DNA of 11,888 bases from a virus (Duplodnaviria; Heunggongvirae; Uroviricota; Caudoviricetes): the IMG/VR virus record IMGVR_UViG_2896601577_000007. One strand, given 5' to 3'. Position 1 is the first letter of the stretch. Each line of letters starts with the position of its first letter. Made by a program: the position numbers and the translations under genes. Positions 1 to 11,888 of the stretch are shown piece after piece. The notes below the pieces were generated by a model. It searched no databases and was not told the origin of the DNA. It saw nothing but the letters and a program-made list of their open reading frames with translations.

Positions 1-519
1 TCATCGGTTCGTCTGAGAATGACGTGCAACTGCGCACGCGACACCCGGAGACAACGGCTGACTAAGCTTACTCCCCATCCCGGGCAATAAGGGCGCGTGC
101 GCTATCCACTTTTTTGCCCGTCCATATTCAACGGCTTCTTTGAGGAGTTCATTTTCCATCGTTTTCTTGCCGAGCAGGCGCTGGAGTTCTTTAATCTGCT
201 TCATGGCGGCAGCAAGTTCAGAGGCAGGAACAACCTGTTCTCCGGCGGCCACAGCAGTAAGACTTCCTTCCTGGTATTGCTTACGCCAGAGAAATAACTG
301 GCTGCTACACCATGTTGCCGGGCAACGAGGGAGACCGTCATCCCCGGTTCAAAGCTCTGCTGAACAATTGCGATCTTTTCCTGTGTGGTACGCCGTCTGC
401 GTTTCTCCGGCCCTAAGACATCAATCATCTGTACTCCAATGACTAGTCTAAAAACTAGTATTAAGACTATCACTTATTTAAGTGATACTGGTTGTCTGGA
501 GATTCAGGGGGCCAGTCTA
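1..519 (-). mobile_element. IS2 (IS3 family), partial copy: left end with terminal inverted repeat and insC/start of insD; the remainder lies beyond the window's left edge
   Basis: Reverse complement of 421..519 matches the IS2 left terminus as I recall it (TAGACTGGCCCCCTGAATCTCCAGACAACC...), ending at 519. Minus-strand ORFs carry InsC sequence ([44 protein letters not shown] and [57 protein letters not shown]) and an InsD segment ([27 protein letters not shown]). A6G slippery motif is present on the minus strand near 108..116. Confidence 0.9.
68..428 (-). pseudogene. insC: IS2 orfA (insC) remnant, reading frame broken
   Basis: The N-terminal 44 aa of InsC sit in the frame of ORF 201..473 and the remaining InsC sequence in the frame of ORF 1..252; the two frames switch near 297..300. 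ATG at 428. Confidence 0.7.
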
Positions 520-736
520 CATCCCACCATTTCAGGGCAATCAGCGCCTCAGCACGGGAAAGGGATATTCTCTGTATATCAGCATCCTCCCCACCAGCCA
601 CCCGGTATACCTCTGATAAATCACGAACATTTTTCATGTCTGCTTTCCCGGACGTTTCCATCAGTGCGTTAATATCATCCCCGTATAGCGTGATTGCGCG
701 ACGATACCAGCCAGAGAGATAACCATAGCCCGGCAT
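520..736 (-). CDS. 3' portion of the FtsH-like peptidase-domain gene, cut off by the IS2 end
   Basis: 72 codons of open frame run directly into the IS2 terminus at 519/520; the last 16 aa of the track ORF 470..736 are encoded by IS2 sequence. This frame is open upstream to 763 and overlaps the 661..1020 ORF. Confidence 0.45.
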
Positions 737-2333: not shown

Positions 2334-3890
2334 CTACACGGTGAACCTGTTCCCATAGTCGGCAGGAATAAGACTGCGCCAGCGGGCTTCACAGTCACGA
2401 ACGGTATCAATGGCCTGCTGCTGGTGGCCTGCAAGCCATCTGATCCACTCCCGCCCGGCAGCGCCGTGATTGCTCTGCCACGCGGATTTTAATGCGTCTG
2501 CATGGTCTTTCCCTGTCTGGTGCTCATGAAAGCGCACCGCCTTACTTAACGGGATATTCAGCAGGCGCACCAGTTGCCCCGCTTTTGTCTTGCGTCCTGC
2601 GGAGGCAATGAACGTTTCTAAATCCATTTCCCCGGTGCTGATTGCCACGGTACGCCAGCGTTTTAGATCCCGATTTCCGCCTTCTTTCGCGCCCTGCAAT
2701 TTCCCTACGCCGTTAAACAGGGCATAGGCAGACTGAGAAACGCTTATCGGGTCTGCGCCCTGTCCGACTTCATCCAGCGGCATCAGTCCGTCATTGTGGG
2801 CGGCGGCCTCGTTTATCATCCCCAGCGCCGTCCCGTACCACGTCAGGCGCAAGGCATCAGGGTTCCCGTATAGACTGCTAGCCACGTTCTGCGTGGTTGT
2901 TTTCCCGGCGCTCGATTGCTCATAAAAATGAATCCCGAATCCGTCACGCTCTGCCACCCCGATTAATGGCGCTGCCAGTGCTGCGGCAATGCCTGTCATC
3001 ATCGCGTAGTTGCCGTATGCCAGCCGCGCGACACTGTTGCGCCAGCTTTCCGGCGTTCCTGCTACGGTATACCCGGCAGCGGCTGAACTGCGCCCGCTGA
3101 ACAAAACAGGCCGCTCAGGTGTGCCGATGATTTCCCCGTCCGGCATGATGTATGCCCCGCACTGCCAGCCTGTAGCATGAGCAACGCGCCACAATTCACG
3201 CGAGCCGCTCCGCTGTAGCCAGTCGGCAAGGATCGCCCGTAAACTGCTTTTGGTCGTGACGTTAACCCCACCAGCTTTCAGGGTGCGCCAGCCTTCACGC
3301 TCGCCAATATCAGCCAGCGGGATAGCCGCTGTTGTCGGTATGCCTGCACCGAATGCCAGCCATGAGATAATAAGATACTGATCTTTGTCGTCGCGTCCCG
3401 TGCCGATAACCTCCAACGGGGAACATAACCAGCTTTCAGCGTTGACGATCTCCCCGCTTTCCTTGTCCACCTTCGGCGTTACCCAGAAAACGCCATCTTT
3501 GCGGCTCTCAATGTGGGGTTTTAGTGGATCTTTCTCTGGATGGTCAGTTTTACCGCCCTCAATGGCTTGCAATCGCGGTTTCACGGCTTCCCCTTGAATC
3601 TGGTACATCGAATCGTTAAACGCAGCCGTAGCGACTTCCAGCCCGTTTTGCTGGCGGTAATCGTCCCAGTCGGCTTTGTAGTCTGTCGGCGGCAGCGCCA
3701 CCCAGCCAGCCACGGATAAGGCGGCTTTCTCTGCGGCATCTTTGCCCGTGTTCGCCTGGTCGTCCTGCTGGTGGTCGTTATCTGCGGCAATGATAATCTG
3801 CGTGGCTGGATATATCCGGCGCATCACTTCGGCAACGGGTAGCAGGTTGCCCGCGTCAATTGCTGCCACTGCCAGCGCGTCCGGGCGCAT
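2334..3890 (-). CDS. Primase/helicase central fragment: distal TOPRIM (DxD) plus P-loop region (DUF927-like)
   Basis: IIIAADNDHQ (TOPRIM DxD) 37 aa after the annotated Met, and a Walker-A-like SSAGKTTT. Its ATG overlaps the stop of the upstream fragment (TGATG). The frame upstream of the Met encodes LATALSVHL, which continues the TOPRIM motif. Confidence 0.85.
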   Translation of the reverse strand: MRPDALAVAAIDAGNLLPVAEVMRRIYPATQIIIAADNDHQQDDQANTGKDAAEKAALSVAGWVALPPTDYKADWDDYRQQNGLEVATAAFNDSMYQIQGEAVKPRLQAIEGGKTDHPEKDPLKPHIESRKDGVFWVTPKVDKESGEIVNAESWLCSPLEVIGTGRDDKDQYLIISWLAFGAGIPTTAAIPLADIGEREGWRTLKAGGVNVTTKSSLRAILADWLQRSGSRELWRVAHATGWQCGAYIMPDGEIIGTPERPVLFSGRSSAAAGYTVAGTPESWRNSVARLAYGNYAMMTGIAAALAAPLIGVAERDGFGIHFYEQSSAGKTTTQNVASSLYGNPDALRLTWYGTALGMINEAAAHNDGLMPLDEVGQGADPISVSQSAYALFNGVGKLQGAKEGGNRDLKRWRTVAISTGEMDLETFIASAGRKTKAGQLVRLLNIPLSKAVRFHEHQTGKDHADALKSAWQSNHGAAGREWIRWLAGHQQQAIDTVRDCEARWRSLIPADYGNRFTV

Positions 3891-4597
3891 CAGGTGAACT
3901 GAAAGGGCCGTCGCCAGCCCTCGGCAATTAAAACGCTCTGCGGCGATTCTGGCGCGTTTACGGCGTGATATGCCCCGCGCTTTGCTGAACCTGTCAGGAG
4001 TCGCTTCTCTCCCTGCGGTGTAATGGTTTGCGCTGCTGCCACTGCGCCGGATTCGTCCACCAGCTCCAGCAATAACGAACCATCCGGCATAACCGGATAG
4101 TTAAACCCGGTCAGCCCTTTTGATTGCAGGTAATCAGATTCGCCCTGTGTGGCACTCTGGCGCATTCCGGCATACAGATGGGCAAACGTAGCCCTTCGCT
4201 GCTCTGCGTCCTCTGCTGCCTGTTTCTGGCGCTCCTGCTCACGCTGCTGGCGGTCAGCTTCCAGTTGCTCTCTTCTATGGCTCGCTGCCGCCGGGTCGGT
4301 TTGCGCTGCCCGGTAATCAATACCCAGCACGTCAGCGGCAAGCTGTGCCGCCTCCGTGGTGTCGCAGTTGTTTACCCGCTTGATTAAATCCAGCCCGTCA
4401 CCAGCGCCACACTGGTTGCAGATAAAGCTACCGCGCCCGTTGTCGTCGAATCTGAAACGGTCTTTTCCACCACATGCAGGGCATGGAGAATGGCGGCGCG
4501 ATGAATCAGGCACGTCGATAGACAATTCAGCCAGCACATAAGGCCAGCGCCCTGCTGCGGCGCTGGTCACTTCGCGGATAAGGTCGATATTACGCAT
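3890..4597 (-). CDS. Primase N-terminal fragment: Zn-ribbon plus start of TOPRIM (catalytic Glu)
   Basis: CPACGGKDRFRFDDNGRGSFICNQCGAGDGLDLI is a P4 alpha-type primase zinc-binding motif; the fragment ends ...SVLIAEG then WRRPFQFT*. ATG at 4597 is preceded by AGGAGG; the track ORF extends to 4630. Confidence 0.85.
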   Translation of the reverse strand: MRNIDLIREVTSAAAGRWPYVLAELSIDVPDSSRRHSPCPACGGKDRFRFDDNGRGSFICNQCGAGDGLDLIKRVNNCDTTEAAQLAADVLGIDYRAAQTDPAAASHRREQLEADRQQREQERQKQAAEDAEQRRATFAHLYAGMRQSATQGESDYLQSKGLTGFNYPVMPDGSLLLELVDESGAVAAAQTITPQGEKRLLTGSAKRGAYHAVNAPESPQSVLIAEGWRRPFQFT

Positions 4598-4666
4598 GGT
4601 TGCCTCCTGCCACGGTCGCGCCCATATCATTAATCATGCTTTGCCATATCTCGCGCCCGATGTCAG

Positions 4667-6631: not shown

Positions 6632-6670
6632 GTCACCGCCTGAGTTTCCACGCTCTGAAATGGCGGTGAC
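6632..6670 (-). promoter_or_regulatory. 9-bp-stem hairpin in the 5' leader, just upstream of the Shine-Dalgarno sequence of the first operon gene
   Basis: GTCACCGCC (6632..6640) and GGCGGTGAC (6662..6670) are perfect inverted repeats around a 21-nt loop; a 5-bp stem with UUCG loop on the minus-strand RNA lies at 6711..6724. Confidence 0.35.
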
Positions 6671-6793
6671 GTTAGCAGGGGTGGAAATACCGGACACAAA
6701 GGAAACCGGCCTACGCGAACGTAGCCCCACTAACGCCACCATTGATACAGTACGGACTAGGCCGCTGATTTGATGTGCGTAGTGATCGGACAC

Positions 6794-6816
6794 AAAAAAA
6801 GACGCTTTCGGCGTCT
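6794..6816 (-). terminator. Intrinsic-terminator-like hairpin followed by a U-run (minus strand)
   Basis: Minus-strand RNA reads AGACGC-CGAAA-GCGUCU followed by UUUUUU (plus-strand A-run 6794..6799). Confidence 0.5.
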
Positions 6817-7103
6817 GTGTCGCCCTGAGTGTGTTCGGGTTTCCACGCCCGGTTGCTGATTTTGCAGCAACGCTTGGACTATAACAGCTTTTCTCTGCTA
6901 GGTGGTCATACCAGATAAAACCGTAACCCTTTAAGAGTTTTTCCTGTGCACGGCTCACCATCTTTTTGTTGAGGGTAAGCGCCTCGCGTACTGGTAACGG
7001 AACTCCGGGCGCTGCGGTATCAATATCAGGTTTTATAAGGTTGTAAGGGTTAACATTTGTTAACAGGCCAGCCAGATTAAAGGCTTCTTTCTGGGCGGCA
7101 GGT

Positions 7104-8101: not shown

Positions 8102-8533
8102 TTATGCGGCGGTGAGATTGTCCGGGTATAGATTGAGAATGTCGGCAATTTCAGGCTGAGAAAGTCCCTGATAGCCGCCAGCGTCGGCGTTATGGTTCAC
8201 AAGCCGAATAACTTTTAGAACGTCACCGCGCCCGGTAAAGCGATAGCGTAAATGTGGCCCTATCCCGTCGGGGTTCTTTTCGTCTATACGCTCAAGCTGA
8301 ATATCAAGCCTGCGCTCTAACTCGCTGGCGTAGTTCCTTCCAGACGAAAGGCGGCAATAACGCAGAATGTCATTTTCTGTCCATCCCTCTATACCAGTAC
8401 GCAGCATATAGACTCTGGCACGATGCTTTTTCGGTGTGCGCTTTGGTGCTTGAAGGGATTTTGTAAGGGGCGTAACATCAGATACGCGAATATCTGAATT
8501 AGCCGCCTGTAATGGGCGGTTTTTCTTTTCCAT
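8102..8533 (-). CDS. Hypothetical protein (143 aa), translationally coupled to alpA
   Basis: Its start shares one nucleotide with the alpA stop (TGATG). Confidence 0.6.
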   Translation of the reverse strand: MEKKNRPLQAANSDIRVSDVTPLTKSLQAPKRTPKKHRARVYMLRTGIEGWTENDILRYCRLSSGRNYASELERRLDIQLERIDEKNPDGIGPHLRYRFTGRGDVLKVIRLVNHNADAGGYQGLSQPEIADILNLYPDNLTAA

Positions 8534-8736
8534 CAGGCCACCTTCCCGCGGCGTTCTGCCAGCCAGTTGTGAATCTCAACCGCATCAAACGCAGTTATTT
8601 TTTCTCCCAGCTTTACCGGACGTGGTAGTGAACCGTTTCTTACTTTACGGTCGATGGTGGATACACTAACGCCCAGCAATTCAGCCAGGCGGAAGCGTCT
8701 GATATAGCCTTTTGTAGGGATAGTGTCGATGTTCAT
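8533..8736 (-). CDS. alpA: AlpA/Vis-family helix-turn-helix transcriptional regulator
   Basis: 67 aa; RFRLAELLGVSVSTIDRKVRNGSLPRPVKLGEKITAFDAVEIHNWL is a typical AlpA (P4 Vis / CP4-57 AlpA) signature. Confidence 0.9.
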   Translation of the reverse strand: MNIDTIPTKGYIRRFRLAELLGVSVSTIDRKVRNGSLPRPVKLGEKITAFDAVEIHNWLAERRGKVA

Positions 8737-8822
8737 GATTCCCGTAACCTCTTAGCGATAGTTGTTGCTTCGTTACGGGGATTTAATGGCGTGCACGCTC
8801 AAAAAGGAATGATCGTATTTTT

Positions 8823-8860
8823 TACTATCGTGATAGTAAAATTTACTATCACCTTTTTTT
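8823..8860 (+). promoter_or_regulatory. Operator-like TACTATC half-sites (two direct, one inverted) forming a hairpin followed by T7 (plus-oriented terminator-like)
   Basis: TACTATC at 8823 and 8844, inverted GATAGTA at 8832; stem GTGATAGT/ACTATCAC (8830..8837 / 8845..8852) followed by TTTTTTT 8854..8860. It lies about 90 nt upstream of the alpA start and overlaps the stop of the 126-aa ORF. Confidence 0.4.
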
Positions 8861-9229
8861 CCCTGCCGTGGTGCGTTCTTCCGGTGTTCTGTCTGCGTCG
8901 GCTATGAGTTTCTTCAGGTAATCTATGGATGGCTCATCATAGCCGCCCCCCAAAAGCGCCCAGTGGTTTATTGTGGCGTTCGCCCATGCTTCGTTGGTTT
9001 CCTTCCCGTTCTTCCCTTTACACTCTTCTGGGTAGTGCCGCTTCACATAAATCAACGCCAAGAGGCAAATTTCGCGCTTTTGCCTGTGGCGCTCTCTGTT
9101 TCCGTGCTCAACGTTTTTAACATCCTCATAAAGAGCTTGTAAGTTTATGCGAGTTTCGGGGCTGTATATGGGCTGGTTTTTGTCCATGCATTCGCCGATA
9201 TATTCAACCCACGGCCTTGTTATGTACAA
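8849..9229 (-). CDS. Hypothetical protein (126 aa, TTG start in track); possibly the frameshifted 3' part of the IS1-disrupted cargo gene
   Basis: ORF in AT-richer DNA with no recognised motif; weak start signals; the frame is open upstream to 9346, overlapping the end of the cargo gene. Confidence 0.45.
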   Translation of the reverse strand: MYITRPWVEYIGECMDKNQPIYSPETRINLQALYEDVKNVEHGNRERHRQKREICLLALIYVKRHYPEECKGKNGKETNEAWANATINHWALLGGGYDEPSIDYLKKLIADADRTPEERTTAGKKR

Positions 9230-9234
9230 ATCCT

Positions 9235-9401
9235 CTACGGATATTTCGTGGAAGGCATGTTTTGTATAATCGAGAAAAAATAATAATTCGCACTTACGTC
9301 TAGTTCTCTTTTTCTGTGTGCGGGGCTGAATATGCGTGCGGGAGTGTCAATAGAATCAAGCCCTGCGATGTCGAGTATATAGGAGGCGTTAACATGCCAT
9401 A
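9235..9401 (-). pseudogene. 3' part of the integrase-proximal cargo gene interrupted by IS1
   Basis: Same reading frame as 10179..10473 once IS1 and one target-site duplication copy (777 nt) are removed; the reconstructed ORF is 153 aa. Confidence 0.6.
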
Positions 9402-9410
9402 GCCCAAGCA
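9402..9410. repeat. IS1 target-site duplication, left copy (GCCCAAGCA)
   Basis: Identical 9-mer directly flanks both IS1 ends. Confidence 0.85.
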
Positions 9411-9465
9411 GGTAATGCTGCCAACTTACTGATTTAGTGTATGATGGTGATTTTAAGGTGCTTGC

Positions 9466-9741
9466 GTGGCTTCCATTTCCATCAGATGTCCTTCCTGCTC
9501 CGCTACTGAAGGCGTGGTGCGTAACGGCAAAAGCACTGCCGGACATCAGCGCTATCTCTGCTCTCATTGCCGTAAAACATGGCAACTACAGTTCACTTAC
9601 ACCGCCTCTCAGCCCGGTACGCACCAGAAAATCATTGATATGGCCATGAATGGCGTCGGATGTCGCGCCAGTGCACGCATTATGGGCGTTGGCCTCAACA
9701 CGGTTTTACGTCACTTAAAAAACTCAGGCCGCAGTCGGTAA
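9466..9741 (+). CDS. insA: IS1 InsA (91 aa, GTG start)
   Basis: [66 protein letters not shown]... closely matches IS1 InsA. Confidence 0.9.
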
Positions 9742-10163
9742 CCTCGCGCATACAACCGGGCAGTGATGTGATTGTCTGCGCTGAAATGGACGAACAGTGG
9801 GGCTACGTCGGTGCTAAATCACGTCAGCGCTGGCTGTTTTACGCGTATGACAGGATACGGAGGAGGGTTGTGGCGCACGTCTTCGGTGAACGCACTCTGG
9901 CCACACTGGAGCGTCTTCTGAGCCTGCTGTCGGCCTTTGAGGTCGTGGTATGGATGACGGATGGCTGGCCGCTGTATGAATCACGCCTGAAGGGAAAGCT
10001 GCACGTTATCAGCAAGCGTTACACTCAGCGCATTGAGCGACATAATCTGAATCTGAGACAACATCTGGCAAGGCTGGGACGGAAGTCACTGTCGTTCTCA
10101 AAATCGGTGGAGCTGCATGACAAGGTCATCGGGCATTATCTGAACATAAAACACTATCAGTAA
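9660..10163 (+). CDS. insB: IS1 InsB (167 aa), transposase catalytic part
   Basis: ...[58 protein letters not shown]...[13 protein letters not shown] matches IS1 InsB with several substitutions. Confidence 0.9.
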
Positions 10164-10178
10164 GTTGGAGTCATTACC

Positions 10179-10187
10179 GCCCAAGCA
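10179..10187. repeat. IS1 target-site duplication, right copy (GCCCAAGCA)
   Basis: Identical to 9402..9410. Confidence 0.85.
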
Positions 10188-10473
10188 CATGGCAATCTAT
10201 ATGATTTACAACGCCTGCCTTAAAGCTTTTTTCGTCCTCTACTTCAGTGATTATGTCGGCAAGTAACAAGCAGTCGTCTTTGACGTCTGGGAATAAAGAG
10301 CAATTGCGATAAAGACTCGCGATGCTATGTAATGTGCCGTCGTAGCCGCAAAGGTACGCGCTCAAATATATAGATTCTGCCGCCGCCATAATCAAAAGAT
10401 CATCAATATCTATTTCTAATAATTCGGCTGCTCTGTTAAGCCTGAAAAAAGGGGCGGGTGGTAATTTTTTCAT
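10179..10473 (-). pseudogene. 5' part of the integrase-proximal cargo gene interrupted by IS1
   Basis: ATG 10473 preceded by AAGGTGA; 98 codons, then the frame runs into the IS1 right end. AT-richer than the rest of the element by eye. No recognised motif (MKKLPPAPFFRLNRAAELLEIDIDDLLIMAAAES...). Confidence 0.65.
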
Positions 10474-10505
10474 TGCGTCACCTTTTACGCTGCGCCTTAT
10501 TTTGT

Positions 10506-10561
10506 GATTGAGCCAGGCGGTAAGGCTTCCCGCTTTTCGCCCCGTCGAGCTAGGCTCAATC
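10506..10561. repeat. 9-bp inverted repeat GATTGAGCC / GGCTCAATC separated by 38 nt, between the int stop and the cargo gene start
   Basis: Perfect 9-bp arms at 10506..10514 and 10553..10561; no flanking U-run on either strand. Confidence 0.4.
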
Positions 10562-10568
10562 TATTCAG

Positions 10569-11828
10569 TTAGTTCGCCCTTCTGAGAGGCGTTACGTTGT
10601 AGTCTTTTCCGCTTTCCAGTGCCACTAGCAGATCAGCCCACTGTGCCAGTGCTGCTTTACGCTCATCAAAATACTGATGGCGGTTATAAATCCCCTCTAC
10701 GCCCTTAATGCGATGATTGAGGCATCGTTCCGCCACAACAGGATCAACACCCAACGCTGCTAAATGAGTACGTGCGGTGCGTCGAAAGTCGTGAATCGTG
10801 AAATTAGGCACATCCGGCATTTCGGCGCGAACCTTAGCCAGTGCTACGGGTAAAGTGCTTTCCTGAATATGTGGGATCATTCTGTTTTGCATCTTCCTGG
10901 CCGGAAGCACCCATGCGCTATTACATGAAAAGGTGTGTAGCTCTCTCAACCATTCAACGGCTGGGGAAGGTAGAGGTATATCAATAGGGTCTCCGTTTTT
11001 GCTGCGTTCTTCCGGCAAATGCCATACCGCACCATCTAAATCAAACTCTTCCCATCGTGCGGCGCATAATTCCATTTTGCGGACGCATAACGCTAACAGT
11101 AATTTGAACGTGATTTCGTTCTGGCGACTGAATCCCTTAGCCGTGCGCATGGCTTTGAATAGCTGGATTAACTCATCGCGGGTTAACCAGCGGTCACGGG
11201 CAGCTTCTTTCCCTCCGGCGTCTGCCACCTCAAAGGCTGAACAGGGGTTAATCTCTAGCGCGTGCCGTTTGATTCCGTAGTCGAATATGCGGCGCGTCCA
11301 TCTCAGCACGTCCGTTGCTATGGTCGGCGCTCCACGGTCAACAATACCTTTCAGCATGTCATCGATATGGCGCGGTTTCACGTCCTCTACCTTCATGCTG
11401 CCAATGCAGGGGTTTATATCTTTGTCGATACGGCGGCGGAGTATATCGGGGTGCTTCCAGCGCGGGAGGATCTGACGCTCAAAGTATTCAGCGGCAAGCT
11501 CTGAAACGCGCATAGCGTTCTTCTCTGCTTCCATCTTCGCCAGTGCTTCGGTTTTGTGCTTCTGCTTCTCTCCTGCAACGTCATAGCCCAGCGCAACGCG
11601 AGCCGATAGCTCTTTGGCTGTCTCTCTGGCCTTTGATAGTGATAGCTCGCTATACGAACCAATTAGCATGGCGCGGGACTTCCCTGCGAGTTTATAGCGG
11701 AATCTCCATGTGGGGGTTTTGTCGGCTTCACGGTAACGTAGGTATAAACCGTTACCGTCTGCCCGCCCCTCGAATCGCTCTCCGCTCTTAATCCATGCGC
11801 GGATCTGCATGTCTGTTAGTTTTGGCAT
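10569..11828 (-). CDS. int: P4-type tyrosine integrase (site-specific recombinase)
   Basis: 419 aa from MPKLTDMQIRAWIKSG...; N-terminal P4-like arm-binding region (GNGLYLRYR...WRFRYK) and C-terminal catalytic region (HDFRRTARTH...LNH...IYNRHQY). The track ORF extends 20 codons further to the window edge. Confidence 0.95.
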   Translation of the reverse strand: MPKLTDMQIRAWIKSGERFEGRADGNGLYLRYREADKTPTWRFRYKLAGKSRAMLIGSYSELSLSKARETAKELSARVALGYDVAGEKQKHKTEALAKMEAEKNAMRVSELAAEYFERQILPRWKHPDILRRRIDKDINPCIGSMKVEDVKPRHIDDMLKGIVDRGAPTIATDVLRWTRRIFDYGIKRHALEINPCSAFEVADAGGKEAARDRWLTRDELIQLFKAMRTAKGFSRQNEITFKLLLALCVRKMELCAARWEEFDLDGAVWHLPEERSKNGDPIDIPLPSPAVEWLRELHTFSCNSAWVLPARKMQNRMIPHIQESTLPVALAKVRAEMPDVPNFTIHDFRRTARTHLAALGVDPVVAERCLNHRIKGVEGIYNRHQYFDERKAALAQWADLLVALESGKDYNVTPLRRAN

Positions 11829-11858
11829 TTTGCGAATATCCAAACTTTGAATAGGGGG

Positions 11859-11882
11859 TGTACCCAAAGCAATGTACCCAAA
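11859..11882. repeat. Direct repeat TGTACCCAAA x2 (14-bp spacing) upstream of the int start
   Basis: Copies at 11859..11868 and 11873..11882, in the int 5' region at the window edge. Confidence 0.35.
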
Positions 11883-11888
11883 CCTCAT

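Follow-up and report, generated by a model that had tools for sequence, protein, structure and literature searches.

Known IS1 elements and the copy in the window

On insertion, elements of the IS1 family duplicate 9 bp of their target, occasionally 8 bp, and the product of their insA gene is known as the IS1 repressor. Two copies of E. coli K-12 MG1655, IS1F and IS1A, served here as isoform references. According to the literature, −1 ribosomal frameshifting takes place at an A6C motif of IS1, and K-12 strains that keep non-consensus IS1 copies only, IS1F included, show almost no IS1 transposition (PMC12428005). In Shigella chromosomes IS1 is the most numerous IS, each lineage having amplified its own resident variant (PMC7373316).

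The whole stretch of DNA that we analysed, 11,888 nucleotides and hereafter “the window”, carries a complete IS1 copy of 768 bp on the plus strand at 9411–10178. It closely resembles IS1F of K-12 (NC_000913.3 4518472–4519239): both are 768 bp long and agree at 762 of 768 bases (6 mismatches, 99.22% identity), with identical terminal repeats, the same insA/insB layout and the A6C motif at element position 307. They differ in coding content. The insB of K-12 IS1F is interrupted by a W-to-stop change and annotated as a pseudogene, whereas that of the window copy is open; besides the stop, the insB frames differ by two further residues (R/T and S/L) and the InsA proteins by two (H34P and T52K in K-12). 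This stop codon may contribute to the rare transposition of IS1F in K-12.

The “consensus” IS1, i.e. IS1A/IS1E, which is near IS1R of plasmid R100, shares with the window copy its length, architecture, 9-bp duplication, protein domains, and the frameshift motif with its position. Its sequence is nevertheless further away: IS1A differs at 69 of 768 bases (91.02% identity), at 15 of the 232 residues of InsAB' (93.5% identity) and at one base in each of the two inverted repeats. The first-pass annotation of this DNA had described the element as a variant of the common IS1, quoting the motif DRIRRRVV against DSLRKTVV; the base and residue counts against IS1A agree with that description, and the motif was quoted correctly.

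Structure and coding capacity of the element

The limits of the element were read from the window sequence and with a repeat finder. Its terminal inverted repeats are 23 nt long and pair at 20 of 23 positions (87% complementary): IRL at 9411–9433 (plus strand; GGTAATGCTGCCAACTTACTGAT) and IRR at 10156–10178 (plus strand; from the repeat finder), each identical to its K-12 IS1F counterpart. The sequence at 9411–10178 has the defining IS1 features, namely a length close to 768 bp and, at both ends, imperfect inverted repeats of about 23 bp starting with GGTRATG.

The insA gene (9466–9741, plus strand) has a GTG start and encodes 91 aa with a zinc-ribbon and a helix-turn-helix, matching the Pfam families PF03811 (E = 2.7e-18) and PF12759 (E = 1.8e-27). 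The insB frame (9660–10163, plus strand; 504 nt) is open, lies in the −1 frame relative to insA and matches the IS1 DDE catalytic domain PF03400 over 131 of 131 profile positions (E = 1.3e-73). The slippery heptamer AAAAAAC, at 9717–9723 on the plus strand, is at element position 307, where IS1A and IS1F have it too; it is a frameshift site predicted from the sequence. A −1 shift made there in silico joins insA and insB into a stop-free InsAB' of 232 aa, which scores 246 bits against the IS1 transposase equivalog NF033558 of NCBIfam (cut-off 100). For all four profiles (PF03811, PF12759, PF03400 and NF033558) the scores are far past the cut-offs. The frameshift site, announced as intact in the earlier annotation, is thus present with an open InsAB' behind it, and the element at 9411–10178 is a structurally intact and apparently functional IS1. 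In sister loci an “InsB” of 97 aa is found; we considered it as a mutation and rejected this, the short product reflecting the start chosen by the gene caller, while in the window no stop interrupts the frame of 504 nt.

From established IS1 biology, InsA would act as a repressor by binding and competing at the terminal repeats, and a rare −1 frameshift at A6C would fuse insA to insB to give the DDE transposase InsAB'. This enzyme would cut the target with a stagger of 9 bp, the repair of which would yield the duplication.

Target-site duplication and empty site

The element is bordered by two copies of GCCCAAGCA, at 9402–9410 on the left and at 10179–10187 on the right. Their starts are 777 bases apart and both directly abut the inverted repeats. 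At two fixed positions a match of 9/9 is expected by chance with a frequency of 0.25^9 = 3.8e-6. The repeat finder also returned an unrelated 9-bp repeat, ACATGGCAA, within the same 1-kb stretch. Since a 9-bp repeat within 1 kb is therefore not rare, the weight lies on the exact position of the repeat at the ends of the element and on the empty site.

When the IS and one copy of the repeat are removed, a reading frame on the minus strand becomes continuous over the join. With the repaired protein of 282 aa as query we recovered P0001, a protein of 282 aa that is 99% identical over its full length and is encoded on contig L016. This contig carries the island uninterrupted, with the same gene order, namely yicC, integrase, 282-aa gene, alpA and antA. 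Window 8401–9410 aligns to L016 1152–2162 (99.8% identity) and window 10179–11888 to L016 2154–3863 (99.6% identity). The two flank alignments share exactly 9 bp of L016, in which GCCCAAGCA occurs once, where the flanks meet: the insertion junction reads ...CATAGCCCAAGCAGGTAATGCTGCC and the empty site ...CATAGCCCAAGCACATGGCAATC. A single GCCCAAGCA at the join in L016 means that the duplication is a true 9-bp target duplication and the insertion a simple one. On this alignment, the window copy is the product of one simple transposition into GCCCAAGCA that was not followed by rearrangement.

These results bear out what had been proposed for 9402–10187, namely a 768-bp element with identical 9-bp flanks that arrived by simple transposition and was not rearranged later. 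The latter part holds for this genome, not for every carrier. The empty target site that was to be sought in related strains exists, in L016, with flanks 99.6–99.8% identical. Complete E. coli genomes gave no close empty site in a megablast search with the IS-free target gene as query; the yicC islands of E. coli have an uninterrupted allele of about 82–85% DNA and 55–57% protein identity, in which the site is too divergent to decide.

Taken as a whole, the locus is almost certainly an intact IS1 of the IS1F type, inserted once and simply at GCCCAAGCA in an island gene of Shigella boydii, inherited since then, and of a type that multiplied in the lineage. The element inserted within the 282-aa gene and duplicated 9 bp; lying on the opposite strand, it truncates the product to 98 native residues. 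Copies of this sequence type have increased in number in the lineage, which also has IS1A-type copies. This is an ordinary, textbook insertion of a known isoform. Its import beyond annotation is small, but it is a clean example of IS1 insertion for which the occupied and the empty site are both available, together with the duplication.

Identical copies and recent activity

The exact InsB sequence of the window occurs at ten places in one assembly, GCA_900457245.1. Nine of these ten copies, among them the one at the same island site, are identical to the window element at 768 of 768 bases. Among all the loci compared, copies identical over 768/768 bases are those of L012, L017–L020 and L022–L026, the loci L017–L026 being those of GCA_900457245.1. 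This assembly contains 11 complete IS1F-type copies; four have a perfect 9-bp duplication, including the copy at the island site, and seven have no target duplication, which indicates that recombination or deletion between IS copies is frequent. The genes struck by IS1F-type copies in GCA_900457245.1 include eutB/eutC, an alpha-amylase gene, elaD and a bglG-like gene.

Identical copies at distinct sites, with duplications of their own, imply that exactly this sequence transposed recently. The copy might instead look intact while being an inactive relic left by an ancestor, as K-12 IS1F is. The very low transposition of K-12 strains having only non-consensus IS1 (PMC12428005) would agree with this, as would the age of the insertion, old enough to be shared among many strains; moreover, a transposase acting in trans could have mobilised any one of the copies. 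We nevertheless hold a relic to be unlikely, because the 232-aa InsAB' is open here whereas insB of K-12 IS1F has a stop, and because one genome has at least nine base-identical copies, each at a site of its own, of which three carry fresh 9-bp duplications.

Recent transposition of an intact element, our preferred reading, resembles the IS1 expansions described in Shigella by Hawkey et al. 2020 (PMC7373316): here too the identical copies of one sequence type are numerous, and several of them are devoid of a duplication. The S. boydii populations differ in being outside that study. The intact IS1F type of Shigella would fit the known lineage-specific expansion of IS1 in this genus without altering it. 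Thus the IS1F type is represented in K-12 by a dead pseudogene copy and in Shigella by intact and numerous identical copies.

Other IS1 copies in the sister loci share 98.6% identity with IS1A and about 91% with the window element. Within the loci fetched, subfamilies of the IS1F and IS1A types thus coexist in S. boydii assemblies.

The disrupted gene

The gene hit by the element encodes 282 aa and is on the minus strand; its neighbours are the island integrase with the int-alpA RNA on one side and alpA on the other. The intact allele is P0001 of L016. The insertion is near codon 96, and the orientation of IS1 is opposite to that of the gene. The 5' part of the gene (10174–10473, minus strand) is now a chimeric ORF of 99 aa, composed of 98 native residues to which the IS1 end adds a single amino acid and a stop codon. 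The 3' part extends over 8849–9401 (minus strand) and has in addition lost one base from an A-run near 9280, in this assembly only. In L003 (10928–11626) and L006 (12343–13041), where the A-run is intact, a chimeric ORF of 232 aa is predicted to run from the left IS1 end into the 3' part of the gene.

We considered whether the deletion near 9280 is a second real lesion, a sign of pseudogene decay, and do not favour this, as it is one of five homopolymer deletions private to this assembly. These 1-base deletions, at 682, 2354, 3920, 4709 and 9280, are defined against at least 5 sister loci; four are in C-runs and the fifth is in an A-run. They break the gene of the TOPRIM/DUF927 primase into separate ORFs (2334–3890 and 3890–4630) and frameshift the IS1-disrupted gene. 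An error in a long-read consensus is more likely than real decay to account for all five.

The 282-aa protein has no match in Pfam, NCBIfam or PHROGs, and PADLOC returned a single non-significant match (E = 0.016). Its AlphaFold model, built on an alignment of five sequences, is of low confidence (mean pLDDT 60), and a Foldseek search of the PDB with this model gave nothing at E ≤ 0.001. Relative to the allele of E. coli 042 (L001 9450–10295), the gene (8849–10473 in the window) retains about 90–100% DNA identity in its 5' leader, first codons and 3' third, while its centre is highly divergent; the overall protein identity is 55–57%. The gene is a mosaic, a pattern that suggests cassette-like replacement or diversifying selection.

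That the knock-out by IS1 was selected, and is not neutral, seems to us distinctly improbable. If it were so, the loss of the gene, or the 777 bp of polar IS1 now standing between alpA and the int-alpA leader, could immobilise the island or silence a function that it encodes in S. boydii. A polar effect of IS1 on alpA is here a conjecture drawn from classical IS1 biology.

Host and inheritance of the insertion

The window matches CP026867.1 (GCA_002949895.1) at 100% identity across the 11.7 kb that could be compared, which identifies the host as Shigella boydii. The exact chimeric ORF of 99 aa was found in 70 blocks of the assembly collection, and its source names are those of Shigella only, S. 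boydii in nearly every case. For the intact allele of 282 aa the source names are mostly S. flexneri, one variant of it being on 729 contigs. In the available records the insertion is therefore a candidate presence/absence marker, separating the S. boydii carriers of the yicC island from carriers of the intact gene, which are mostly S. flexneri. All of the integrase-bearing loci fetched (8/8) have the same insertion. They include CP001063, the genome of S. boydii CDC 3083-94 (PMC2974192). It looks like one event inherited within an S. boydii lineage.

A single base of the IS varies among carriers. The G at 9865 of the window, which specifies the last R of DRIRRRVV (R134), is also present in L004, L012 and L026; in L003, L006, L007, L010 and L013, which have the same insertion, a C at 9865 gives T, as in K-12 IS1F. 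Among the loci compared, 9865 G is apparently a variant of a sub-lineage. The difference could result either from a later substitution or from gene conversion by the many G-bearing copies of the genome.

IS1 prefers certain target regions, and the variation at 9865 could be taken to mean that a hot spot was struck repeatedly and independently. Such repeated strikes are very improbable: position, orientation and 9-bp duplication are alike in every locus examined, the flanks are 99.5–100% identical, and a later mutation or gene conversion explains position 9865 more simply.

Two sister strains have a modified locus. In L009 (11711–13231; CP026762.1) a truncated IS1A-type copy directly abuts the IS1F-type copy, and the island beyond has given way to unrelated chromosomal DNA, the corA region. 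In L012 (11711–13431; CP026872.1) an IS1A-type copy is 185 bp off and much of the island is missing. Both are IS1-mediated rearrangements that came after the insertion.

Isoform assignment

A search of complete E. coli genomes returned as top copy one that is 99.9% identical to the element, and of the 9598 E. coli records with a match, 3868 have a best match of 99% identity or more. The NCBI annotation of the E. coli copies that are 99.2–99.6% identical is “IS1-like element IS1F family transposase”, and the matches annotated as IS1A-family or IS1B-family are only 90.8–91.5% identical. By these comparisons the element belongs to the long-named IS1F type (sequence type IV of K-12), which is already known and confers on it no status of new isoform. 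Among the further named IS1 entries (IS1N, IS1S, IS1SD, IS1X1–5 and others) one could be closer than IS1F, for instance IS1N or IS1X2. We found in the literature no usable statement on the relationship of IS1N to IS1F in Shigella.

The divergence of 9% from IS1A, with its 15 changed residues of 232 in InsAB', and the presence of R134, unlike K-12 IS1F and the five sister copies, might be taken for the marks of a previously undescribed isoform. This is hardly credible and is refuted by K-12 IS1F itself, 99.2% identical with the same terminal repeats; the 99.9% copy of E. coli, the 3868 records and the copies identical at 768/768 bases in other public assemblies also speak against it.

Finally, a chance origin of the 9-bp repeat at the flanks, or its origin as the relic of a recombination between two IS1 copies, can be dismissed: the second repeat in the same 1 kb, and the 7 of 11 duplication-free copies of GCA_900457245.1 in a lineage where inter-copy recombination is common, would make it conceivable, but GCCCAAGCA exactly abuts both ends of the element and L016, with the 9 bp once and the gene continuous, refutes it.

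Island context

The island is a prophage- or satellite-like element integrated next to yicC, which it adjoins in the sister loci. It encodes a tyrosine integrase of 439 aa (10569–11888, minus strand) and an AlpA-type regulator/excisionase (PF05930; phrog_66), and its content also comprises AntA, Ash, the TOPRIM/DUF927 primase, an SSB and a C4/isrK antisense-RNA module. In a search of a phage collection the window had no match except for an IS2 fragment at its left end. This fragment (window 1–524) is part of an IS2 copy, 98.9% identical to the IS2 of Stx phage records, so the left side of the island is IS-interrupted too.

The int-alpA RNA motif (Rfam RF02996; 10494–10560, minus strand) scores 60.6 bits for a gathering score of 35.8 and is directly upstream of the disrupted gene, between the stop codon of the integrase gene and the start of the disrupted gene. 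It is parted from alpA by the 282-aa gene, and now also by IS1. An antisense immunity module of the P1/P7 type is found at 6659–6884 (minus strand), with the C4 RNA (RF01695, 80 bits), isrK (RF01394) and the a1/b1 target (RF03163).
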